Below are positions 9,649 to 42,170 of a DNA stretch of 64,000 bases, in pieces; the first letter of the stretch is position 1; every line of letters starts with the position of its first letter. Location of the stretch: positions 90,644,001 through 90,708,000 of the forward strand of contig OX597822.1 in the NCBI GenBank assembly GCA_951406725.2, in the 5' to 3' direction. Below the pieces are notes generated by a model. That model did not search any database. It was not told where the DNA came from and saw only the letters and a program-made list of their open reading frames with translations. This DNA comes from Octopus vulgaris (Eukaryota). A program made the position numbers and the translations under genes.

Positions 9649-10342
9649 ATTAATTATAATACTAATCATTATTATTACTTTTGTACACCAATCAAACTGG
9701 CTAAATCCAAGTAATGTTTCAAATCAGTCCAAAAACGTTTCTATGCTCATTCATGTTGGCGGTGAAGTTTTCAAGAGGATGTTGAAAGCATTTTTATTGC
9801 TCCCTGAAAATTTTAGGGGGTGCAAGTGCACACCTTCATGAGCATATGTTCAACCATTGTAAATACGATGTGCTTGTTTATGAATGGTATACACACTGTT
9901 TACATCGTTTAATTGTTAACTGAAATAATTGTTAATTAAGAAGAAAATTTGATCAACATATTACTGTTTGCTTCAGCTTGTCTGCATCTCTTTTTTGGTC
10001 AGCTAGCCTGTTCCTGTTTGGTTTTGTCTGTTAGTCTCTTTAATTATATCATTGAAAATCAGATATTTGTTGTTGATATCTATTCTTTACTGTACTAACC
10101 AGCTATATTGTTTCTACAGATGTTTCTGCATTTTATTTGGAGTGGGTTGTAAATTTTTGAAGTAGCTTATAAGCAGTCATGATGCAGCTGGTTATTTTCT
10201 GTTGTTTGAAAGAGATCTTGTGATTGAAATCAATGTTTCTTTGAGCTTCATATCTTTTTGATGGCTATTAATTGATATATTGCTCATTAACATATGTTGT
10301 TTCATTTCCAGTTGCTGGCAAGGTGCACAACTCTGCAAAAAC

Positions 10343-10450
10343 ATGTCGAAGGCCAAGGCACAACAACCTGCTGTGATCCACAAAGTCATTATGGTTGGTA
10401 GTGGTGGTGTTGGCAAATCTGCCCTCACCCTACAATTTATGTACGATGAG
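10343..10450 (+). CDS. Ral: Ral GTPase coding exon 1 (exon starts at 10312; ATG at 10343)
   Basis: Translates [36 protein letters not shown] (Ral-type P-loop). Acceptor ttcatttccAG ends at 10311; donor GAG|gtaagt, phase 0. Confidence 0.97.
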
Positions 10451-17928: not shown

Positions 17929-18377
17929 GTACTGTTGCTGAATATCTCTTGTGAGATTTAAAAAATAGTAATTTTCGGACCATTGTTTGTTGTATATGTG
18001 CATACTGTAGATTGGGAAAGTGGCCCAGAGTCGTGTATTATATATTTTGTTTGTACTGCAGTGGTGGTGTTTATTATGAATTACTGGATTATGGGTATCA
18101 AGTGTATAAGTCTCTGTCAATCACTAAACTGTCTCAAGTGGGTTTGGATTAAGGACATTTGCTGTCAGTGGCTGTCAGAATTAGAACCAATGAAGTTCTC
18201 TGACTGATTTGAAATAACAGTCAGTGTAGTGTTTTAAAATTTAGTGACCTGCAATGGGAACCTATTAATACAGATCTTGGGATGTTTGAGTGAGAGATAG
18301 GTTTTAAGGTAAAGAAAATATTGAAAATATCTGAAAAGTCAGTGGATTGGTTAAGAATAGTTCCAGTTTCTTTGTAA

Positions 18378-18635
<258 letters not shown>

Positions 18636-18802
18636 TGAGTACATAGCTTTCTCTATGTCTTTTTTGCTCATTTAAATGATGTTATGATTTCTTTGAATAT
18701 ATGCTTATCTATGAATGTTGATAAAACTCTTGTTGTGATGTTTGGTAGTACGCATAGTCCTTTGAGACAGATTTGAGTATGTTAGGTACGGTTTTGTTTC
18801 AA

Positions 18803-19520
18803 TCATCCTCATCATCATCATCATATGTCCGCTTTCCATGCTAGCACGGGTTGGGTGATTTGACTGAGGCCTGGCAAATCAGATGGCTGCACCGGACTCC
18901 AATCTGATCTGGCAGAGTTTCTACAGCTGGATGCCCTTCTTAACACCAACCACTCCGAGAGTGTAGTGGGTGCTTTTACGTGCCACTGGCATGAAGGCCA
19001 GTCAGGCGGTACTGGCAACGGCCACGCTCAAATGGTGCTTTTTATGTGCCACCTGCACAGGAGCCAGTCCAGCAGCACTGGCAACGACCTCACTTGAATG
19101 TTTTTTCACGTGCCACCAGCACAAGTGCTAGTAAGGTGATGCAGGTAATGATCACGCTTGGATGATGTTTTTAACGTGCCATCAGCTTGGAGGCCAGCTT
19201 GTTGCTCTGGCCCCGATCTCACTCGTATGGTACTCTAAGCGCTCCACTAGCACGGATGCCAGTCATCGAATTTGATTTCGATTGCCTCAACAAGTCTTTG
19301 CAAGCAGAGTTTAGTGTCCAATGAAGGAAAGACACACATAAGGGGACTGGTTACACCCCTGGCATAGGCCACAAGGTTATGGTCTCACTTGCGCTTGCCG
19401 AGTCCTCTCAAGCACAGCATATTTCCAGAGGTCCTGGTCACATTGCCTTGGTGAGGCCCAGTGTTTGAAGGTCATGCTTCACCACCTCATCCCAGGTCTT
19501 CCTGGGTCTACCTTTTTTAC
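18803..19520 (-). mobile_element. RTE LINE 3' end with (GAT)n tail
   Basis: (CAT)n followed by GTCCGCTTTCCATGCTAGC...CTACAGCTGGATGCCCTT; same family as 57414-58405. Confidence 0.8.
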
Positions 19521-21071
19521 AGTGAATATCCTTGACTGTCCTACTGTTTTCCTTATCTTTACATCATTAAGGCCCTTTTGGTTGTATAGCTGGAACCTTA
19601 ATTTCACAGATCTAGTATGTGGCTTATGGCAGGTTGTCCTATAGAAACTCTCAGTTTTCTGTTATAAGACTATCACATCTTCACCATAGGCACAATCTAA
19701 TACTTTTATGAACAGCCATATGGCAAAGGCATTTTTCAGTTTTCATACTTTTCTTCTCTAGTTTCTCTTGTGTCTGTAGGTGTGTTTAGTTCATATCTCT
19801 TATCCTAGGGGAAAATTTAGTATTCACATCCAACAGTCATGTTTCTTGAAGAGTATGGACTCATGTGTTCACTTGAATGTTAGATGATCAAGTGGCTGAA
19901 AATTGTTGGGTCATTTGTGCAACAAAACATTGATCTGTTCTTCATTCTTTGTGTCATAGCCATAACCTCCATGTACACTGGAGTAACAATTCTGTTGATC
20001 AACATGTTCATTAATGTCTCCAGCTATGCTGTTGCCTGTTATTGAGGTAGATAAAATAAAAATGTGTCTGAGACTTCAAACTGCATTGGTGGAAGATTAA
20101 ACTGCTTTTGTATTGTCAACTGGGGAAATGGTCTGTCTGATTCATGCGTTTTCTTCAAACTTTAAGAGTTCTTTGAATCTGTAGTTGTTGCATTAGCATG
20201 TCCCTTAATTGAAGATTAAATTGCTGTTACACTGTCAAATGGATGACATGTAGAATAGTGGGATATCTGCTTGAGCAACTTCAATATGTGACCAGTGACC
20301 AAACAGATGAACATGTGCCTATCCCCTCTGCTGATCTTCTGCAAATTAAGGTGTGAAACTTCGTTTCAGCATGTTTTCATTGCTGACTAATCTTGGGAAA
20401 TTTCTATTGATTTAGGCCCTTTCGTTTATCTTGTATTGAAGTTTTTCCAATAAATTTGTAATTATTGTGACTTCATGACGACTAGGCTGTTTTTAATTAA
20501 TGAGCAATTCGTGGAATGATGTGAAAGAGAATTGGTTAATTCAGCTGTTGTCTAACTGTTGTAATTTTCTAATGTTGTCTCTCTCGTGTTTTCCATGCAA
20601 TGACAGGCTGATGTGTGTTTGCAGATATTTTTGATTAGATCAATGTCAACAGTATATCCAGTCCCTACATGAAAGCCATATCAGCAGACCATAATTGAAA
20701 ATATACATTAACCATTTAGATAAGTTGTAACAATCGCTCTAGCAATTGATTATTTATAGGGATTGAAAGACTCAAAATATTTTATTCATATTGACAAACA
20801 TGTTGACAGTTTTTCCTACACCAAATCTATTGCATTGATTTTAGTTCTATTTTATAAAATAGAACTAAAATTGCTTTTTAGTATCATATTCTGCCGTTGA
20901 AGTGTGTTTGCATTGAGATACAAATATTCAATTGCTGGTGATGATAATTTTAAAATGTGTGAGTTGAGTAACTGCTCCGAGAGAAAGTCACACATTTGAA
21001 TTTAATTTAATGTCACCAAATGTTTTGATTTCTTCAAATTAGTAATGTTACACTATTTTTTTCTTCCCCAG

Positions 21072-21246
21072 GGAACAAATTCTAAGAGTTAAAAATGATG
21101 ACAATATTCCATTCCTACTAGTTGGCAACAAAGCTGATCTTGAGGACAAACGTCAAGTCAGTGCAGATGAAGCTAGTCAGAGGGCTGTCCAGTGGAATGT
21201 GTCTTATGTAGAAACTTCAGCTAAAACTAGAGCTAATGTTGATAAG
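21072..21246 (+). CDS. Ral: Ral GTPase coding exon 3 (175 nt)
   Basis: Translates [58 protein letters not shown] (NKxD and SAK motifs). Acceptor ttcttccccAG; donor AAG|gtatga; phase fits exon 2. Confidence 0.98.
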
Positions 21247-21599
21247 GTATGAATTGTTGATTAATTATTGACCTTTGTGTTTGAATATTGTTGGATATAT
21301 TGCTTTTACAGATGGATTCCCTTCAAGCTACTAATCATTCAAGTTTGTAGTCTATCACTAAAACCACAATTATTAATTTCTACTCAAGTTTTTATATTGG
21401 TGATCCATAGCAACCTATAGGGTGTCCACAGGGTGATTAGCTCTGTTTGTATGATCAAAGTTATCAAACCAGAATTTTTTCATGATTAATGTACACTTTC
21501 TTATAAGTTCTGTAGAGCCTTACTCTGCTTTCCTTACAGTTGCCCTTCTGTTTAGTTGTATCTAAATTGTCTTATCAGATTTTACCACTGTAGGATGTG

Positions 21600-22195
21600 T
21601 TGGGACTCCTGCTGTCACACTCTCAATCGACTTGAATGTTTGTCAGGGTTTGGTTTTGTCCCCAACTCTCTTCCTTCTGTGCTTCAATGATCTACTTACT
21701 GCCACATCCAACAACACCCATGCTGATGACATGAACCTTCATTCCTCCTTAACATTCCCTAACCATATTTCATCCACACATAACCTACATACCACACACC
21801 AAACCTGGATTGATTCCAGAAATGAAAATCTTGAGAGCATATTCTGTGGGGCCTTGCTAACCTTGTCTCTTTTAACAATGAAAAAGCTAAAGCACTACTC
21901 ACAATGCCATAGTCCCCCTTAAGCATGTATGACAATCAGCTAGAGCTTCACAGTCACTTCAAATGCTGGACCTTACTATCACCAAGGATCTCTCCAGGCA
22001 AAAGCATATCAATAAGGTAGTGAGGACCGTATCCCAAAATCTGGCCATTCACTTTAGGGTCAGAACATATCTCAGCCCCTATCAGCTGTTGACTCTCTAC
22101 AAAGCTCAGTTGAGGCTTTCAGTGGAGTAGTGCACACACAAATGGGATGGTATTGCTACTGGACACACAAACATCCTAAACTGGATCCAGAGAAT
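21600..22195 (+). mobile_element. CR1/Jockey-like RT remnant
   Basis: QGLVLSPTLFLLCFNDLL...HADD (RT motifs), decayed. Confidence 0.7.
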
Positions 22196-23329
22196 GTTTA
22201 TTATTAGTAAATGTTATCATTCATTACATATTTCTCCTTATTTTCTCAACTATATATTTCTGTTAGTATTAAACAGTCTTTAATTTTCATTCTTTACAAT
22301 GTTAGCTTCGTTTTTATCCATTTTCTCTCACCTATAACCCTTTCTTTGAAGGATGTATATAATTTACTCCCCAAACAACTCATTACCAGCTCTTCCTCCT
22401 ATGTATGAGTATGGTGTATATGTATGTGCACATATGTCTGTGTGTGTGTGTGTGTGCAGCCCTTATTCCCACACCCACTCTATCCCTGTCAAGCCTTCCC
22501 CATCTCTCATCTTCCTAATACCCATCCCTCCATCTAACTATGGCACTATTCAGCTGCTGTAATTATATGAGAGAATTGCATGCGTTTCATTATTATATTG
22601 CTCCTCTGCACTCTTTCTGTACTGTCACTTATCAGCTCTTTCTTCTTGAGCCACTCCTGTTTCTTTCCCCTTTTCCCGAAACTCATATATACCATCCACC
22701 ATATCTCCACCTTTGTTTGCCATTCACTACATTCACTTCTATCTCTATCTTTAACTGTCTGTCACTTTCCTCTCTTGCACACTGCCAACCATTCCAGGTC
22801 TTCTATCACTATTCTTTCTTTTACACACCTTGTACCTTAATATGTCCTGACATTTATCTCTACCATCTTTAACTCTCTTTCCTGCTTCTCCCATTCACCC
22901 TTATATAGTATGGGGCAGCCATGTATCTCTGCTACATCATGACCTTGTTTGTCCATCTGTCATATGTGGCATACATCTTCCTCCCTTTCTACTACCCCAC
23001 TCAGTTGAGAGCTCTATTTTGTCTTGTGAGTTACATGGCTACCTCATTTGTGCTGGTGCCATGGAAAAGCATTCAGTACACTCTGTAACATGGCTGACAT
23101 TAGGAAGAGCATCAAACATAGAAATCATGCCTTGGCAGACATTTAAGCTTGACACAGTCCTCTTGCATGTAGGATCTTGCAAAATTGTCTAACCCATGCC
23201 AGTATGAAAGGTAGACATTAAATGATGATTATGATTGTGTGTATATGTGTCTTTTTGCATCTCATCATCAATTAACATCAGGCTTCCATAAGTTTTAGCG
23301 ATTCATAAGTTGTTTCAACACCCAGTCAT

Positions 23330-23990
23330 AATGCTGCAGAAGCCATGTAAGCCAGCTTCTTCCTGAGCAGAAGCCCTGCTGGGTGTCAGGAAGCAAGTCA
23401 TTATCTTCTAAGAGTATGATCAGCTTCTTATTGACAGTTCATTCTATGAATTGGCTGGCATGTGAAGTTAGAGAGGCAAGCCTATAAATTTTAATGTCCT
23501 TTATGGACAGGACATATTTGCTTTGTCTTTAACTTTCTGAGAAGTCTATCACTTGCAAGGAAGCTTTGGAGAAGATCTGCAGTGGTTTTGCTTGGGCTTT
23601 TTTTTTTTTTTTTTTTTTGAAGATTGCTGGGAATCCATCAGGGCCAGTGACTGAGTCTAAGCTCATTTGATCAATGGCTGATATTACATCAGTTTTCTCT
23701 ATTTCCATGTAATTGATAATTGCCATTCCTTCATGTAGAGTGGTGGTGTCAAAGAACTCATCTAGCATATTTATTTGCAAGTGTTCCAATAGAAATGTAG
23801 TAACACTTTTGTATTGCATATTTAATTTTTCACTTGTTTTTTTGGGTGTCTGCACTCAGTGAGCCATTTTCTTCAAACAGTGGCCCTATCTTGTACTGTA
23901 TTGAAGCAGACTCTTTTGCAAATCTATTGAAGGCATTAGCCCTGGCTTCTTTGTCTGCTCTCTATTTTGAGAGTATTTGAGTTAATTTTT
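23330..23990 (-). mobile_element. CR1/L2-like LINE remnant
   Basis: DVISAIDQMSLDSVTGPDGFPAIFKK...AKPLQI; homologous to 62350-62950. Confidence 0.7.
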
Positions 23991-25652
23991 TTTTATTTCA
24001 AGCAGTGCTCACTTTACCTAGTAAGGAAATTTTTTTCTGTTAAACTGCAGGAGTGCGAAGCTATAGGACCCATTGTTCACAGGGCTTATAAAATGTCATT
24101 ACTATTTGTGTTTTACTCAGATGATTTGAATCAAAGAATGTTCTGTGTTCAAATCTCACTGGGGTCAATTTTTGCCTTGCATTGTTTCAAGGTTAATAGA
24201 ATAATTACCAATAAAATACTGAATTGATTAAATCAAATCACCCCCAAAGTTTGTTCAATTGTAGTGTTATCCTAATATTATGAACCATTATTACTTTCAT
24301 TATAATTTGGCGCAAAACCTATAAAGTCTGAAAAATAGAATTATTTTAAACTAGTAATGAAGTATACCCATGTATACAAATTAAGAAATTTATGTAAATT
24401 TGCTACAGTTCCATATAAAACATATACTGAGGTAAGTTTCATACCCTATTTCAATGTTTTACTGATTAATTTGATTTAAAATCGAGAGGTGGGATATAAT
24501 CTGATGTAAAGGCTACCACTCAAGGAAGATTAGTTTATGTCTTGCAGCAGTGTTGGACCTAACATATTTTGAAATTATCAATAATCCTCAACCTAAATAT
24601 TCTCTAGTATAATTATGTAACACATCTTTATTGATACTGAAAACATCCTTCAATGTATGTTCTGTAAAATGTGATCCTTATAATAATAGTAGCATTTTTA
24701 TTACTATTAATGATAATGACTTCTCAGGTAGGCACAATGTCATGTGTTTATTGGGAAGGATATAATCATGGAATTATTGGGGTAAAGCTATAGTTGTTTA
24801 ACATCAATCCCTGTCTAGTATATCATATTTTATCAACTCCTGACAGATGAAAGGCAAATTCTATTTTGGAAGGATTTATATAGAAAATATAAACAGGATA
24901 TAAGCACCACAAGATACTTAATCTAATTGATTATTGTATCTATCACTTAACTGATCTGCTGCAATAATAATAATGATTTCTTTTATTTGTCACAAGGCAT
25001 AGATGAAGGGAACATTACAAGAATATACTTTTTGTGGTGGGAAAAGACAGTGAAATAAGATAAAAGCATGCGCCATATATAAGCATGTGAATACATGAAT
25101 GATGCAATCCTCCTGATACAGGAGGATTGCATCATTCAAGGGCCAACTAGATTCATCATTACCTTGACAACCAAAAGCATGAGCCCTAACTCAACTGTTG
25201 TTCTCTAAACTATAAGTGCATGCTTAGAGTAGGTCCATACACCCTAACCATTTTTGTAACAAATTTTTGCTGTTTTTTTTCCCAAATTAACAGAGAGAGA
25301 GCATTTCCCTCTCCACCCTCACTTTCCTTTTCAAATGGAACTTAAAAAGTCAATGAAGGCTTGGCTGAAGAGGGAGGTGTCTTGACTCAATCCTTTCAGA
25401 CTTATCCACTACAAAACCTCTTTTTCCATAACCACTAGACAAAGGAATAATAATAATAATAATAATAATAATAGTGTTATTTGTTTCTTTGAAAATTATA
25501 ATGTCTTTTAAGTCCTAATGTATAATTATGGGAATATAAGTTTGAGGCTGTTGCATAATTTATGTAGTAAACCATTACCATTGTTTTAACATTGTCTTTT
25601 TAGCCAAATCATTAATGCACTATTACGTGAATTATTCTTTTTCTTTTTCCAG

Positions 25653-25793
25653 GTGTTTTATAATCTTTTATCATTAAGCCAGAAATGGAAACGATCTGTT
25701 GGCTCTTCTCAGACCCAACATGCCAATATTTCTGTGGGAAATTCAAGCCACAGAAAGGGCACCAAACATAAAAAGAAATGTACTATTCTGTGA
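25653..25793 (+). CDS. Ral: Ral alternative terminal exon 4a (divergent tail, CAAX CTIL; predicted 210-aa isoform)
   Basis: Strong acceptor ttctttttctttttccAG; in-frame VFYNLLSLSQKWKRSVGSSQTQHANISVGNSSHRKGTKHKKKCTIL*; polybasic stretch plus CAAX; AATAAA at 25860-25865. Confidence 0.85.
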   Translation: MFYNLLSLSQKWKRSVGSSQTQHANISVGNSSHRKGTKHKKKCTIL

Positions 25794-28137
25794 TTTTGGT
25801 AGCTAGCTTTAGCCTTCTTAAGTCCTCCAAGTAATTCTTAAAAAATGTTCAAAATATCTAATAAATTCCCTTTTCCTTGTTTTTCTTTCCTTAATTTATT
25901 TTGCTTTAATTCATCTCAGTTTTTATCTTCCACCCCTTATGCTCTTACTCTTACAATTTGAATTATTTTTGGTGAACCATTTTTTGTTATTAGTTTCAGT
26001 GTTAAATTTTGTAATGTAAGATACAGCATGGGCTAAATACATTTCAGTATTTAGTTCCCCTAACTTGTTTCCAAGCTAAAATTCTATCAAAAATCACTTA
26101 AAACTCAGTATTCTTTGGGCTGAAAAAAAATGTGTATATAATGTACTTAAGTTAAAATAATTGACTTTGATACTTTTCTTTACAAAATTACATAGGAAAA
26201 CATCCTCCACCACTAAAATATGAAAATTTATCCCCATTAGAAACAAAAGATTCAAAATGTATATCCATGAAAAACAGGGCTACACATTTTGTTCAATGTA
26301 CTACCAATTCTGCCAATGCATGTCCTCGTGCACGCACACATACACTCACACACACACAAAAAGAAAACTGGCACATTTTTAGAATTTTTCAAAAATTGGT
26401 ATATTTTGCCATTAAAAAATTTATTGTTAGCAATTTAACCTCTCAACCAAAAAAAAAAAAGAGTCCAATATTTTAGTTTCCTGGATTTTAAGCCAATGTC
26501 TCTACACATATAGTAGACTTTTGATCTAATTTAATGTCAACATTAAATTTCTCTTCTTTCAGAGTAGAATTGCTTCAAAATTTGGCAAGCTGCTTGTATT
26601 TCTTAGTTTTGATTGTTGATAGCTCATTCAATACTCATACTTTTGAAAAAGAAATGAGCATTGTGCAATCTCATATCTACATTTCTATAAATATGAGGTT
26701 TTTTGGTTAAAAATTCCATACTTTTGATTTGGGAGTGTACGACTATAACGAAATGTCTAATTAATGAATACATAGCTCTAAGAGTATATACCAGGTCCAT
26801 AAGCAGGTTTCAATTGGCTGTTAACTATTTAACACCATTTTTTCCTTCCCAGTGAACTTGACTCTAGCAAGCATAGCTATGCAGTTAAGAAGCCTGCTTC
26901 CCAACCATGTGGACTTGGGTTCAGTCTCACTGTGTGGAAACTTGGGTAAGTGTCTTCTAGTGATATTGCTCATTTCTAGTCTTCCTTTAGGGAGTATTAA
27001 CTTGCTTGGAAACAAGTGCGGATTGGCAGCGAGAAGAGCATCTAGTTGTAGAAAATCCAATTCAGAAACTTCTGTTTGGCTCCTGCAAGCATAGAAAAGC
27101 TCACAATGCAAACATGGTGAAACTCTCTCTCTTTCTCTCTGTTGCATTACTCTGACTGGATAATAGATGAGTTCTTTAGTATATTACTTACCTTGACTGA
27201 AATCTTGCTTTACCTTGTTAAATTATAATCCTTCTCTTTTGATTCTGGAATGTGGAATTGGAGAGCACTTTTGGCTTCATAAAAACCAACCAAGCATCTA
27301 ATTTAAATCTGTCACAAATGTCACACAGAGAGCTCTGCTGAATATTGTGGGAAGTTGTTGATGATGTCAATTTAATTACAGCAGAATATTAATGATGGTA
27401 CAACTCCAGCTGACAAATCAATAGGGTTACACTACTGACAAGATACAGTGTCTGTCTATATGGAGGTTCAGAGCCCCATTCCAGATTGCAATATGTGTTT
27501 GCCAAAACACATAATACATGTTCAGTTTATTCAGAGGTACATAAATACTAGAAGTTGTAAGAAATAGACACACTACAATTATTTTATTAGCTTTATAGTG
27601 CTGACTCCAGTTATCCCAAAGTTCTGTTGAAGGTGGTAGTAATCACTTTGTATCCCCTTCCTTTGAAATTTGTTTTTTGATTTTTGACTTGCTGAAGACA
27701 CTTTCACAAGTTTACTTATTTTTGGTGGGGCAATAACTAAACTTTTATGCCATGTCAATAAAGAAAATCATTTCTGATATTCTGGTTATGTGGATCTAGT
27801 TATAGCTGGACCCTGCTACCACTAATATCTCAATCAGCCAAATCTTGGGTAGTCTGTTTGAAAATAAGTAGCTTTACTTCACAACTATTATGGTTGGTAA
27901 ATAATCCACTAATTTTTCTTGTAATTCTATAAATAGCAATGTCCAACTATTGGATGGAAAGCAAAAGTTAAAAATAGCTATAAAAACATAGTAAAATATA
28001 AGAATTAACAAATTTTCAGATTGTTGCTCTTGAGCCCTTGTTTTTTCATTTTCTCCCTTTTTTAACTTGACCCGAATTCATTTGCTCCCTTTTTTTGTTG
28101 CTTTTCCCAATCAATTCTCCTTCACTTTTGCTTGTAG

Positions 28138-28251
28138 GTATTTTATGATTTGATGAGAGAAATCAGTTCTCGGAAAATGGCTGCCAGTCGACAAAATAAT
28201 GGCAAGAAGCACAATGGAGACCGACGCAAGAAGAAGTGTATAATTCTTTAA
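28138..28251 (+). CDS. Ral: Ral terminal exon 4b (canonical-type tail, CAAX CIIL; predicted 201-aa isoform)
   Basis: Long polypyrimidine tract and tgtAG acceptor; VFYDLMREISSRKMAASRQNNGKKHNGDRRKKKCIIL*, resembling the vertebrate Ral VFFDLMREIR...CCIL end. Confidence 0.95.
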   Translation, partial: VFYDLMREISSRKMAASRQNNGKKHNGDRRKKKCIIL

Positions 28252-30561
28252 CTGTGAGCAAGAGCAGTTGATCACTGACTATATTTCTGGTCCTTTTCCT
28301 TGCTTGTCCTCCTTTCCTTCCATCTCGTTGGTCCACCCACTCTTTTGGTTCATCAACTACCATTAACCTAGGCTATCACCTCCTCATCTCAACTGTTCCC
28401 TTGTGCATGTGCAAGGAAGTGTGTGTGCGTGTATGTATCTTTGCTTGCTTGTATGCATTGATGCATGCACTTTGCATCTGTCAGTATAAATTTGCTAAAC
28501 TTACACATCAATGTGACAGACTGTATCAGTGTGACAGACTCTGAATACTTAATACAATTTCTTCCATTTTTCTCAGGAGGAGATTAAAGCTTTTCTTTTG
28601 CAGCTTATGTTTGCAGAAATGCAAAAAAACAAACTTTTTTATGCAACATAGAGACTTAATCTCTCTCTCTCTCTCTCTCTCAGTGGAACACTAAGCACAC
28701 TCACTGCTGAATCTGACATTCCTTTCTTTTTTAAATAAAATTTAAAAACTTCCTGTTGTGTTGGAAGATGAAGCCATTGATTTATATGAATAATGAAGTG
28801 GCTGCAATAACTATGTAACCAATAATTATAAGGTTCAAACCAGGCAACTAATAATGAAGAAATGAAAAGTGGAGAAAAGAATCAGTTCCTGCAGAAATTT
28901 CGATTCTAGCAGTGTGTGTTTGTGTGAAATTATACTATCTCTGTTAGGGGCAGGTAATAGGATGGTATTATTGACACTGAAGATGCTGTGAGGAGTGGGG
29001 AACTCTTACTCATAACAGTTGTGGAGAGAAGTTCTGTTAATTACCTGTAACTTAGAGGGAAAAGTGGCTTAAATTCTGTTATTTTGAAGCTCATCAATTT
29101 CAAATTTGTTGTACCTCAATAGCTTTTGATTTCAGACCAGACATTCATTTGTTAAACATTTCTTCTTCAGTAAGAGTAAATTCCCTCCTTCCACAACCTT
29201 AGTCATTTGATAAGTAAAAATGTTTTCAATAGCACCTGATTTAATATATTGTTGTTGAAATAATAAATAACTTGGCCAGTTCTGTGATGAGACACTATTT
29301 AACATTGAATGATAGTGATACATTTTGCTGCTAGCATTTGAAATTCTTCTGGAGTATTGGAAATTGCTACTCAGTGTTTGCATCTCTTCCAAGTCCATTC
29401 AGTGAGTTGATGGCAAAATATCATATACTTGATTTGTTTTCCTTTTGAGTAAATTATAGAATAAAAGAACACATTGAAATTTATGCTATTTGATGATGTT
29501 TTGTGATGTTTGCTAACCATCTCTAAGATCTAAAAAGATGTATTTTTTTTTCTTGTTTCTAATAATTGTGGTTGTAGAAGCTCAAAGTGATAATATAAAT
29601 AATTATGTGAGAAAGAATTTTGAAAATAAGTGAAACAATTGCCATCATACAAGTTGACTGGCCATTTGATATGCAAGATATATTAAAGTGCAAATTAAAT
29701 CAACTTAACAAAATAAAGTATGATAAAAGAGAATTAATTTGACTGAGAAATTTCTGCCTTCATCTCAATGTCCTTAATAAAAATGTTTAAAAATCCCTCA
29801 TTTTGTAGATTTTCATTGCAGCATTTACTTGTTTAACATTTAAATGAAGTTGGATGTTTTCATATGGACCATATCCTATACGAAATTTTTGTTTACATTC
29901 CTTGTTTTCCACAAAATCTTCTTTTAAAAAAAAAAAACACTATCTGAAATCTGTGAATGCATATCTTGTATATTACTATGAGGTGATGGAGGGATGATTC
30001 TATCATTACATCAATTCTATTAGCTGTCTTTTACAATATTTCTATTTGTCTTTTAAAACTTTCTATACACTTTTTTTTTTACCATACTTTCACTCAACAT
30101 ACACATTTATTTATTTACTAATTGCTAGTTATCAGTCCAAAATCTTCATGTGAGTACTTGCAGCCCATTGTTTATGGAAAAAGTTTAAGTGTGTTTGTGT
30201 TGTGATTCTATTGAAATCCTGAAGCTGTACATAAACTAAGCATAGACTGCAAAATTTTTTTTAATTCTATGTATATTAAGGTTTACTTAATTGCTCATTT
30301 AGCATTACTTATCCAGTCTTACTAAAAATAACTCAGCCACAATAAATGAACTTTTAGTAAAAATTTCTTGGTATAGTCTTATTTTTTAATATTTTTTTCT
30401 ATAGCCTTATCAGAACTTTTTTTGTTTTTAAAGTCTTGAGACATTCAGCTATTTGCTTTTCAGGCGAACAGAATTTCATTTTGTGTCTATATAGCAAAAT
30501 AGAATTTCATACAGATGATAAAACATGCCAAATACATTGTCCGCATATGCATGAGTGTACA

Positions 30562-38260: not shown

Positions 38261-39301
38261 CCTCTCACACCTACTTCCTCCCATCCACCTCTCCTCTTGC
38301 CCCAACTTGTACTTCTGCTCTTCACCCCTACCCTCCTCTCTTCTCGTCACTTCTACCCACCTTCTCCCTTCATCGACACCTCCCTCATAACCCTACCCCT
38401 ACACAATCCAACCCCACCTTCAGTCTAACCCACACCCCACCCTTGCTTTCCCAAATCTCGCCTCTCCACATCCCAACACAACGACACCACACAATAACAA
38501 CACACACCACTAATACCACACAATACCACATCACACCACCACGCACACACTAGCACTGACCACTTCCCAGCACCTACACCATCATCTGCACACATACACA
38601 TGCACACACACACACTTCAAGGTCAGCAGCCCTCCTCCACACGCACATACATGCTCTCTTATACACACGCACCTTCGTTTTGGGATCACCACTACTTTAT
38701 TATCTCCCCTTCTTCCTAACTCTCCTGTGTGATCCCTCTGTGTGGCATTCACCATGATAGATCGCTAGCCACTACACATGTTAACCTTAAGACCGAGGAA
38801 GCTAAGTGCATCAGGTCCTACTAAGTCCATCCAGAATGTACCCATTTACACTTCTAGAGATGGCTAAAATGTCTTCTCTATATAGACCAAAGTGGATTGA
38901 TGGGAACCTCTTACTTAAGATGTCCAGTATATATAAGCTTATGAGGTCGCAGGTATCCACCCATCGTCACATTGAAGGATTTTTCTGGGTTAGTTTATTT
39001 GACTTAGGTTGAACATTTGTTGAACAACCTTCGTTGAGTATCAGTTTTCTTCACTTATGGAAAACTGGCACTGCAGTGAGAATTCAGTTGATCCTATCAA
39101 CAGAACAGCTAGCTCGTTGAATTAATGTGCAAGTGGTTGAACACTTCACAGACACATGCACCCTTGACATAGTTTTCAGGGAGATTTAGTGTGACAAAGC
39201 TAGTCCTTTGCAAAACAAGTATGACTCATTTTGCCAGCTGAGTGAACTAGAACAACGTGAAGGGACTCAACTCACCACCAGGCATCGAACTCATGACCTA
39301 G

Positions 39302-42170
39302 CGATCTAGTAGACCGCTACCGACTGGATGAGTCGAGCGTTTCACAGTGGACGTGGAGTAATAACGGCGGCTCATGCAGATCGTATATAGATAGAATTTT
39401 TGTTAAGGAAAGAGATAAGCATAGCTTTAGCTGTCCACAATTTTGTATTGTGCCTTACACGGATCACAAACTTGTGACGTGTGAGGTACATGTAGATAAG
39501 TGTCATAGACAAGGACCCGGGTATTGGAAATTGAACAAGTCTATTTTGACTTGTGAAGCTTTCCGTACCCGAATTAAGGAGATAGTGCAGAGGGCATTAT
39601 GTGGCACCATCATTAATAATAGGTGGTGGCACGCCCTCAAGAGAGCCATCCGTCTTGAGTCCATTAGATTTAGCAAGCAGCTGAGTTTAGATAAGACTAG
39701 ACTAGAGGGTGACTTAGTTAAGAGCCTACATGAGGCAATGGAATTTGGCTCCGCATCTAGAGTGTCGGCGGCGAGAACGGTCCTGTACCGTCACCTCAAT
39801 GCCAAACATGAAGTGTATCGAGTTAGAGCTAAGTTACGCGCTAGGAAACGAGAGGGTATTAACGTAGCCAGGTGGGCACGTCGTGTGGAGAGTCAGAAGG
39901 GTAAGAAGTCCTGTATTAAGTCTTTAACTGACGAGCAGGGACGCAAGATCTATGAATAGGAGAAGATGCAAAAGGCTTTTCACCATCCTTTTGTTCGGGG
40001 AGAGCGGTCCGCTTGAGCGCGGGGAGCTCTTAAGGGACTTCTTAGCTGGTGGGCCTCGACTCTCGGCACGTGAAACTGAAAGCCGTGAAGGCCCGATCAC
40101 TCCTGCGGAGGTAAGAGAGGTGCTGGCCGAGTGCGCCGGGGAAAAGTCTCCGGGACTGGATGGTCTGTCCTACGAATTTTATCGCTTAATGCCGGACTTG
40201 TTTGGGGATGTTCTGGCAGGCGTCTATGCAAACTGGCAGCAGAATGGGAGAATTCCCAGTTCTGTAAGCCGGGGAGTTGTGACACTGATCCAGAAGGACC
40301 CAAGCAAGGGGGATAGGATTAGTAACTACAGGCCCATAACTCTGCTTAACGTAGAGTTAAAGATTTTGGCCAAGGTGTTAGCAAAAAGGTTGACGGCTGT
40401 CGTGGAGAAGCTTGTCGGAAAGGCACAAACTTGTGCAATACCAGGCAGGTCGATCCAGGACAATCTTCATCTTCTCTGCTACACCTTAGAGAGGGTGGGT
40501 AAAATAGCCGACAAAGGAGGGGCATTGGTCCACTTAGACCAAAGTAAAGCATTCGACAGGGTAGACCACCGGTATCTGGGGGCTGTCCTCGAAACGGCTG
40601 GGCTAGGCCCTGGCCTTCGCGGGCGGATCTCCGCTATATATAGCAGCATCAAGTCCACCGTTCAGATAAACGGTTATTTAACGGAGCCGTTTTCGATTAA
40701 GCGGTCTGTTCGTCAAGGTTGTCCCCTGCATCCGATTCTGTATGTTTTGACCCTGGAGCCATTGCTGCGGAGGCTGGAGAAGTTAGGCGGCAACCCTAAT
40801 GAGATTGGATGCGGTAAGTTCACTTCTGCTTATGCGGACGACGTCACTCTCATCGTGTCTAAGGAGGCACAACTACCTCATGTAGAAGATGCTCTCTGAA
40901 GATACGAAACGGTGGCAGGAGCAAAGGTTAACAAGGACAAGTCCATCGGTTTGCGCCTCGGCACCTGGCGGAACAAGCCGATATCGTCCAGTGTCGTCGG
41001 ACACTGGACAGATGGTCCTGTTAAGTTGCTTGGGGTTTGGTTTGGTTGAGACTCCCAGACGGAGAAGAATTGGAGCGAGGTACTGGACAAGGTGGAGGCC
41101 ATAGTACGGAAGTGGTCCGGAAGGTCTCTGTCCTTGAAGGGTAGAGCGGAGGTGGTGCAGGTGTTTATAGCATCGTTAATCACCTACCACCTGTCCGTTG
41201 TGCCTTCCTCCGACTTTTGGCTAAACAAGCTGGTACGACTCCTCTTCCGCTTTTTGTGGAGAGGGGGAAAGCCACTTGTGAGGCGCTCCGTATGCTGCCA
41301 GGAACCGCTAAAGGGTGGCTTGGGGATGTTCTGGCTAATGATGCGCAGACATGCGTTGAGGCTGAGACATCTCTGGTGCCACCTGGGGGGTGATAAGGTG
41401 TGGAGTCCGTTGGCGGAAGAGTTCTTGCCGCGACCGGCCTCGCTGGAAAGATTTAAATTCGGTCTCATTAAAAGACGTAAGCTGACTTTACGGCAGAAGG
41501 AGTGCCGTCAGACAAGACGGGCAAGGCTAGCTGCGGGAATACCACCTCGGTATTCTATAGAGGGCTTGTGGAGGGAAAAAAATGATGACGTCTTAGGAGG
41601 GGCTCTGGGGTTCGACGAGAACCAACTTACCAACCTGTTTTGGAAAACCTTGAAGCCGGAGTATTTGGATAATTTCCAAAAGTCTCTGACTTGGCAGTGT
41701 TACAGGAATGCTTTACCTGTTCGCGAGAAGTTATCTAGGCACGGTATGGCAGTGCCACCGACATGTCCAAGATGCGGGCGGGACAGTGAAACTGTCCAGC
41801 ATGCTTTTATACATTGTCGGCAGCTTTCCAGCTTGATAATTTACGTAGAACACGTGTTTTTGCATCTGGGACGAGTACAGCTGTCAGCTGGATCTATGAT
41901 AAAGATGATACCGCCAACTGGACTCTCAAAGGAAGGCGAGGCTTGTTTTTTCTGTACGGTAGCAGTGTTGAAAGAGTGTATATGGAGGACTAGAATGGAA
42001 GGTTTTGTGACAGGGGCCTGGATTGCTGCTTTACTTCAGATACCATCTAAAGAGCAAGATAGGGCTGGAAAAGAGGACCCTGTCAACTAGAATATATGAA
42101 CAAAGATGGAAGGAAGTGGTGAAAAAGGTGGGTGTAAGTTACCCAAATCGATCATCGAGGGAATAAAAAG
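39302..42170 (+). mobile_element. 5'-truncated Tx1/L1-clade LINE ORF2 pseudogene
   Basis: End of APE domain (SYIDRIFV, TDHKLV, GYWKLN), RT (KSPGLDG, NYRPITLLN, DQSKAFDRV, RQGCPL, YADD) and C-terminal CPRC...HAFIHC. Few frameshifts/stops; CpGs retained. Confidence 0.92.

Follow-up and report, generated by a model that had tools for sequence, protein, structure and literature searches.

Two homologous last coding exons in a single octopus Ral gene, and pairs of Ral tails in gene models of other protostomes

According to our analysis, the window, by which we mean the whole stretch of 64,000 nucleotides of Octopus vulgaris DNA that was analysed, holds a single Ral gene on the + strand, with coding exons at 10343-10450, 18426-18634 and 21072-21246 followed by two alternative last coding exons, here called 4a and 4b. 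Exon 1 (10312 to 10450, ATG at 10343) carries the P-loop GSGGVGKS, exon 2 (18426 to 18634) the effector loop YEPTKAD and the DTAGQE motif, and exon 3 (21072 to 21246) the NKAD and ETSAK motifs together with a phase-0 donor, AAG/GTATGA, which is common to 4a and 4b. The encoded G domain, with the effector loop YEPTKADSY, is that of a Ral GTPase: among structures, the protein matches RalA chains at E 2e-94 and RalB at E 9e-86, and it shares 75% identity with a vertebrate RalA. A search of the 2.8-Gb genome with exon 3 returned one match at 100%, while at least six further matches reached 40-67% over part or the whole of its length, in agreement with the single gene proposed by an earlier, sequence-only reading of this DNA. 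Judged from this search, there is one Ral locus in the octopus genome, and no second Ral gene was found in it as an exon donor.

The 31 nt preceding the exon 1 ATG (10312-10342) are in frame with an exon that lies beyond the window. This upstream exon (L002:1501-1523, at G000:C9:90579392, ~65 kb before the window) has its own ATG and a GT donor, and it extends the N-terminus by 18 aa, two of which are Cys (P0001 and P0121). Cys-bearing extensions ahead of the usual start are also found in scallop, pearl oyster, Aplysia, nemerteans, Limulus and insects (28 proteins listed), often as F-S-C or P-S-C, and such an extension could offer invertebrate Ral a second choice of membrane targeting, at the N-terminus. 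Elsewhere in the window, 39297-42090 contains frameshifted endonuclease and reverse-transcriptase-like frames which, judged by eye, belong to a LINE-type element, and 51776-54207 is a tandem array with a unit of ~90-100 nt, (TA)n runs between units and long open frames.

The coding part of exon 4a (25653 to 25793) encodes 46 aa and a TGA stop, comprising helix 5, a Ser/Thr-rich linker, a basic patch and the CaaX box CTIL, and that of exon 4b (28138 to 28251) encodes 37 aa and a TAA stop, with a basic patch and the box CIIL. Both follow exon 3 in phase 0 behind YAG acceptors, with pyrimidines at 18/20 positions for 4a versus 17/20 for 4b, and the polypyrimidine tract and CAG acceptor of 4a (25631 to 25652) rank first for pyrimidines among the strong intron-3 acceptors listed (n = 17). 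The sequence-only reading had described these two in-frame tail exons with good acceptors, had taken 4b for the canonical Ral tail and had attributed the pair to exon duplication, all of which our results bear out. When both strands of the window were scanned, only two of 7,002 AG-led frames combined a helix-5-like start (x-F/Y-F/Y/C-x-L) with a CaaX end, namely 4a and 4b, and the alignment of these two scores above every one of 2,000 codon and 5,000 residue shuffles, so that the pair is not due to chance. Adjacent, homologous, both in phase 0 and each completing the protein, they are tandem duplicated C-terminal exons. Splicing in silico with 4a reproduces P0149 (210 aa, RefSeq Octopus sinensis isoform X3) letter for letter, and splicing with 4b reproduces P0122 (201 aa) exactly; the window proteins thus have identical counterparts in records under the names Octopus sinensis and O. 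vulgaris. No third CaaX exon was present among 349 AG-led frames in intron 3 (oysters have three tails), and when RNA pairings around 4a and 4b were inspected, no inverted repeat joining the donor region to either acceptor stood out. A perfect 20-bp inverted repeat with a 3-nt loop lies at 25096-25138, ~515 nt upstream of the 4a acceptor.

For transcripts, we mapped Logan contigs of four runs, labelled by code as X1, X5, X6 and X21, on 18300-30000. Their RNA status is guessed, since none of the 24 runs found is recorded as RNA; small shares in X18-X20 were left out. Contigs of X1, X6 and X21 skip introns at GT..AG, joining exon 2 to exon 3 and exon 3 to 4b. Of the two joints that the sequence-only reading had singled out for checking, 21246-28138 is therefore seen in three of the four runs, at depths of 391 (X1), 241 (X6) and 26 (X21), whereas 21246-25653, which would lead into 4a, is not among the joints listed (15 of 49; 4 runs). 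In X1 and X6, the exon-3 contigs stop at 21250, up to which intron 3 and 4b have the same letters, while a surviving 4a branch would cut them at 21248. Together with the missing 4a joint, these ends mean that 4a is rare or absent in the X1, X6, X21 and X5 samples, or that its short junction, being a rare variant, was lost from the contigs; because contigs drop rare variants, the missing joint limits the level of 4a, not its existence. Behind 4b, contig pieces reaching 29514, 29801 and 29924 define a 3' UTR that extends at least from 28252 to 29924. The start of intron 3 (21247-22312), which has an in-frame stop two codons past the donor, is covered at depth 7-11 in two runs. Models that read into intron 3 exist for O. 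vulgaris (P0147), Sepia, Lingula, Mytilus, Anabrus and others, and a tail-less Ral produced by slow splicing or intronic polyadenylation at intron 3 is possible.

The contig of run X1 that covers 4a (25486-28165, depth 16.5) begins upstream of the 4a acceptor and is therefore unspliced. That of run X5 (25651-26326, depth 2) starts two letters ahead of the exon, with the A of the AG in the 4a acceptor, an offset equal to that of the spliced contigs at exon 2 (18424) and 4b (28136), where it arises because the preceding exon ends in AG. Such an edge is what mixed spliced and unspliced molecules would leave, which we take as a hint only: X5 contains no Ral splice of any kind, so that it may not be RNA and the start of its contig may be fortuitous. 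The two contigs give the 4a form a likely 3' UTR of at least 25794 to 26326. The X5 contig stops at 26326 beside a CA repeat and the X1 contig runs on into 4b, and contigs cannot mark RNA ends. Run X6 holds 0.94 of the words of 25620-26300 and yet shows no contig cover there, but the filter omits records, so that such holes are uninformative. Hexamers follow 4a at 25860, 26411 and 26542. The first of these, an AATAAA that had been assigned to 4a as its own signal, is indeed in the sequence, but its use is unsupported, the contigs running past it to 26326 and 28165.

A similar outcome applies to the donor proposed at 25831, which would make 4a a cassette exon, spliced on to 4b, with 4b then serving as 3' UTR. 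The sequence CAA/GTAATT is present there and is a plausible donor, 37 nt past the 4a stop, close enough to escape decay under the rule of 50-55 nt from stop to junction. However, the X1 and X5 contigs both read through 25831, and the joint 25830-28138 is not among the joints listed (15 of 49; 4 runs), which leaves its use unsupported and the cassette arrangement very improbable.

Among protein records, 4a is found in the RefSeq O. sinensis isoforms X1 (P0001) and X3 (P0149) and in the older O. bimaculoides isoform X1 (P0150), in which 45/46 residues are identical (R14Q) and the CaaX box is intact. It is absent from the O. vulgaris records listed, which include 4b and the intron-read-through form P0147; the newer O. 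bimaculoides record lacks an isoform suffix, and no 4a-like tail was found in it, in five squid/cuttlefish-type (decapodiform) proteins (one on 140 contigs) or in the Argonauta protein. When the 4a peptide was searched against longer proteins, P0001 was the sole match among 124 candidates, and a search of the 46-aa peptide against 1.84 billion cluster representatives gave 0 matches, a result that is uninformative, as Ral forms collapse at 50% identity.

These absences would fit a decaying relic of an old alternative exon, reached by occasional splicing or present only in unspliced RNA, that yields no working protein. The lack of a listed joint into 25653, the unspliced state of the X1 contig over 4a and the place of 4a in the longest-branch class of the tail tree described below point the same way, as does helix 5 itself: N4, S7 and S9 of 4a occur in 0/145 other CaaX tails compared, and position 9, S in 4a, is I, M or V in 145/145. 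Three conserved helix-5 positions are broken in 4a, and a relaxed constraint on this exon is possible. Decay is harder to reconcile with the 45/46 identity and intact CaaX box between two Octopus species, with an acceptor that has the strongest pyrimidine tract among those listed for intron 3, and with the X5 contig edge at that acceptor. Nor does the low variation over 4a and the 590 nt behind it suggest decay. The X1 contig, which represents one haplotype, differs from the window at 33 positions, 1 of them in 25653-26379 versus 31 in 26380-28137 (scan P 0.0065, with the boundary chosen after looking); the sole difference in 4a is synonymous (CGA to CGG), and 25794-26379 has none. Two structure models of the 4a form, of low confidence (mean pLDDT 47 and 61) and not informative on stability, still draw helix 5 through the start of 4a, to about residue 182, one of them over 164-182. 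We therefore deem the relic unlikely. It is instead probable, in our view, that the single Ral gene of octopuses has one exon-3 donor followed by two homologous last coding exons, 4b giving the main form and 4a a likely minor but maintained alternative that was likely inherited. For the use of 4a, we draw on the RefSeq models in two Octopus species, the strong acceptor and the contig starting at it, which make use at a low level likely.

The two tails end in KKKCTIL (4a) and KKKCIIL (4b), each directly followed by the stop, and, as the sequence-only reading had stated, 4a is longer by nine residues, is Ser-rich (11 Ser/Thr versus 3 in 4b) and, like 4b, lacks a second Cys. The change of anchor that had been suggested by analogy with KRAS4A/4B or Cdc42 is not supported in octopus, where the 15 residues before the CaaX box carry a net charge of +6 in both tails and each tail has one Cys and a terminal Leu. 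Because 4a keeps a basic, single-cysteine tail, the lipid class would stay the same. Kinase-type sites, identified by regular expression, adjoin the 4a basic patch at S32 and T37. In the portions of PMC8345156 available to us, which we used for the prenyl and palmitoyl rules, phosphorylation near the basic patch, at S194 in RalA, lowers membrane affinity.

Under the reading that we favour, the 4a and 4b acceptors would compete for the exon-3 donor. The 4b acceptor wins by default, as the exon 3-to-4b splices demonstrate, and a minority of transcripts would choose 4a, giving a Ral of 210 aa in which the switch regions and the effector loop are unchanged and helix 5 and the tail are new. The 3' UTR of such transcripts would reach at least 26326 and either end near 26411-26560 or read on over 4b. 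Both tails are predicted to be geranylgeranylated, because of their terminal Leu, and to bind acidic membranes via the basic patch. With its 11 Ser/Thr residues and the kinase-type motifs beside the basic patch, 4a may be a tunable anchor on a longer linker, that is, by analogy with S194 in human RalA, the tail whose membrane grip phosphorylation could adjust.

The two-tail layout, which had been ascribed to this lineage, is spread across Mollusca, Nemertea, Annelida and Insecta. Among 244 proteins with an exon-3 end, 149 carry the canonical tail and 71 a different CaaX tail, which leaves 24 with neither; the class of 71 includes no fewer than two misfiled rows, as well as many single forms of the annelid type. 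The G-domain core is identical in 20/21 hand-picked tail pairs. Beyond Octopus, pairs occur in 17 named genera, comprising 8 gastropod, 4 bivalve (Crassostrea twice) and 2 nemertean genera, Owenia and 2 mayfly genera; one JGI pair is counted apart, and the Ruditapes pair, whose cores differ, is excluded. Both exons are thus conserved across species, the homology of 4a to the alternative members of these pairs being moderately supported. The gene structure of the pairs was taken from names and proteins, which at NCBI are isoforms with neighbouring accessions or entries under one locus tag. The Biomphalaria model P0177 has the alternative tail followed by the canonical one, as in octopus. Full-length alternative-tail proteins are encoded on Logan/JGI contigs of 1.0-2.2 kb (P0152, P0155, P0157, P0194 and P0242), which implies that the alternative exon is spliced in these animals. 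In a sample that is not exhaustive, Aplysia had the canonical tail in all four of its isoforms, and no alternative CaaX tail was found either for Lottia, Liolophura, Mizuhopecten, Limulus, Tachypleus, Uloborus and Glandiceps or for vertebrates.

Canonical tails are all basic over the 15 residues before the CaaX box, at +6 in octopus 4b and +7 or +8 in the others. In 15/20 non-octopus alternative tails, by comparison, a second Cys stands just upstream of the box and the net charge is -1 to +2. By sequence, these 15 tails, from most snails, bivalves, nemerteans and mayflies, would represent a true switch of the KRAS/CDC42 type, with a second Cys in place of the basic patch, and the alternative tail is predicted to give a palmitoylation-anchored form in these animals. 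The Mya alternative tail has neither a second Cys nor a basic patch, and those of Haliotis, Patella, Owenia and the JGI pair are basic with one Cys, like octopus 4a. It is likely, then, that invertebrates obtain two differently anchored Ral proteins from one gene. Mayfly Ral occurs in 201-aa and 197-aa tail forms; in fly Rala, we presume that the duplicated exon is the last one (197-aa isoform). Oysters have three CaaX tails (P0035, P0038 and P0023), of which the 33-aa one (ending TTKCCVLM) resembles the 34-aa mayfly tail (ending ATKKCCVIM), the two grouping weakly (87/76, on a long branch). In the annelid records P0013, P0066, P0104, P0009 and P0012, the sole Ral tail collected is of the alternative type, basic with a single Cys, hinting that this type of tail may be the main form in several annelids.

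Vertebrate RALA and RALB resemble the octopus pair in that two Ral proteins differ mostly in the tail, but they are two genes rather than two exons, and both end in CCxL, a motif that is palmitoylated. No CaaX-bearing alternative exon was found in the vertebrate Ral proteins collected. The closest parallel is KRAS4A/4B of jawed vertebrates. Like octopus Ral, this Ras-family gene has a phase-0 junction just before helix 5 and ends in two homologous coding exons, each of which supplies helix 5, the hypervariable region and a CaaX box, the alternative exon lying upstream of the canonical basic one (PMC9882654, in the sections available to us). It differs in that the KRAS tails belong to distinct anchor classes, whereas octopus 4a and 4b belong by sequence to the same class and most other protostome pairs to distinct ones. 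Moreover, the KRAS 4A exon was reportedly derived from NRAS exon 4, and the octopus has no second Ral gene as donor. CDC42, with its exon 6/exon 7 forms (Cdc42-palm, CCIF, and Cdc42-prenyl, CVLL), likewise has alternative 3'-terminal exons of which the upstream one is minor or tissue-restricted and which carry different lipid tails (accessible parts of PMC4870516 and PMC9868626). It belongs to the Rho family, however, and Cdc42-palm has its second Cys within the CaaX box, while the protostome alternative Ral tails have theirs just upstream (CC-aaX or CxC-aaX) and octopus 4a has none.

For the human Ras superfamily, the portions of PMC9882654 at hand, 10 supplementary files included, report only KRAS and CDC42 as switching membrane anchors by splicing and do not mention RALA. 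Among invertebrates, Drosophila Rala occupies one row of Table S4 of PMC9741552, which covers 154 genes with tandem duplicated-exon substitutions and, as far as the available table goes, does not state which exon is duplicated; the literature surveyed gave no account of the function of this event. C. elegans ral-1a and ral-1b are, as in octopus, two isoforms of one invertebrate Ral gene, but they differ at the N-terminus (exon 1a/1b) and not in the tail (PMC12407918, available in part). Alternative Ral tails are not described in the accessible parts of PMC8373072, PMC9868626, PMC5307359, PMC9013439, PMC11540318, PMC4870516, PMC6191721 or bioRxiv 10.64898/2026.09.05.749416. We found no report of alternative Ral tails in invertebrates, the fly row in PMC9741552 being the sole trace, although supplements and subscription papers may hold some.

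With regard to its origin, 4a shares L6, K11 and an aromatic residue at position 12 with gastropod alternative tails, features that occur 0, 2 and 0 times in 87 canonical tails, and its profile score is 12.6 on alternative tails versus -5.0 on canonical ones. With 4b randomised at the 8 positions in question as the null, the profile of the 8 gastropod alternative tails gives P 0.002-0.016, and that of all 20 gives 0.017-0.11, a weak result. These affinities speak against a fresh duplication of 4b in octopods, combined with several independent origins of two-tail Ral genes, a reading that is compatible with 4a being in use. So do the Patella, Haliotis and Owenia alternative tails, which likewise end basic with one Cys, and the identical exon order of Biomphalaria. 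A fresh duplication would account for the KKKCxIL end common to 4a and 4b and for their alignment at the DNA level; oysters, with three tails, illustrate that new duplications do occur, and convergent duplicated exons are common according to the available part of PMC9741552. The tail tree, built on 23 columns and lacking resolution, with octopus 4a on a long branch, also leans this way, since it needs three label changes and recovers a single alternative-tail clade in 0/200 bootstrap trees. On balance, we find a fresh duplication rather unlikely and favour descent of 4a from an older two-tail Ral gene, which the sequence affinities make likely, over its creation in octopuses. A broader scenario, which we put forward tentatively as possible but short of probable, is that the single Ral gene of the protostome ancestor had a basic and a second-cysteine tail exon, a pair that insects and spiralians have retained for >550 million years and that deuterostomes, having diversified Ral through gene duplication instead, do not have, and that octopus 4a would be a derived, phospho-tunable version.

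Two-tail Ral is thus present in public gene models and catalogued by name in fly, and as a cross-phylum feature it is apparently undescribed. The octopus is the weaker example, with a likely minor form that is predicted to carry the same lipid, is already in RefSeq models and is seen without a listed junction. If the ancestral two-tail reading is true, "one invertebrate Ral", the fly model for RalA and RalB included, would be two differently anchored proteins, and Ral would be a third, older case of the anchor switch known from KRAS and CDC42. With Ral tail pairs in four protostome phyla, invertebrate work that treats the gene as one protein may mix two isoforms with different membranes. With the same arrangement, knocking out one exon at a time could test how much is decided by the Ral tail on its own, which is the long-standing RalA-versus-RalB question.
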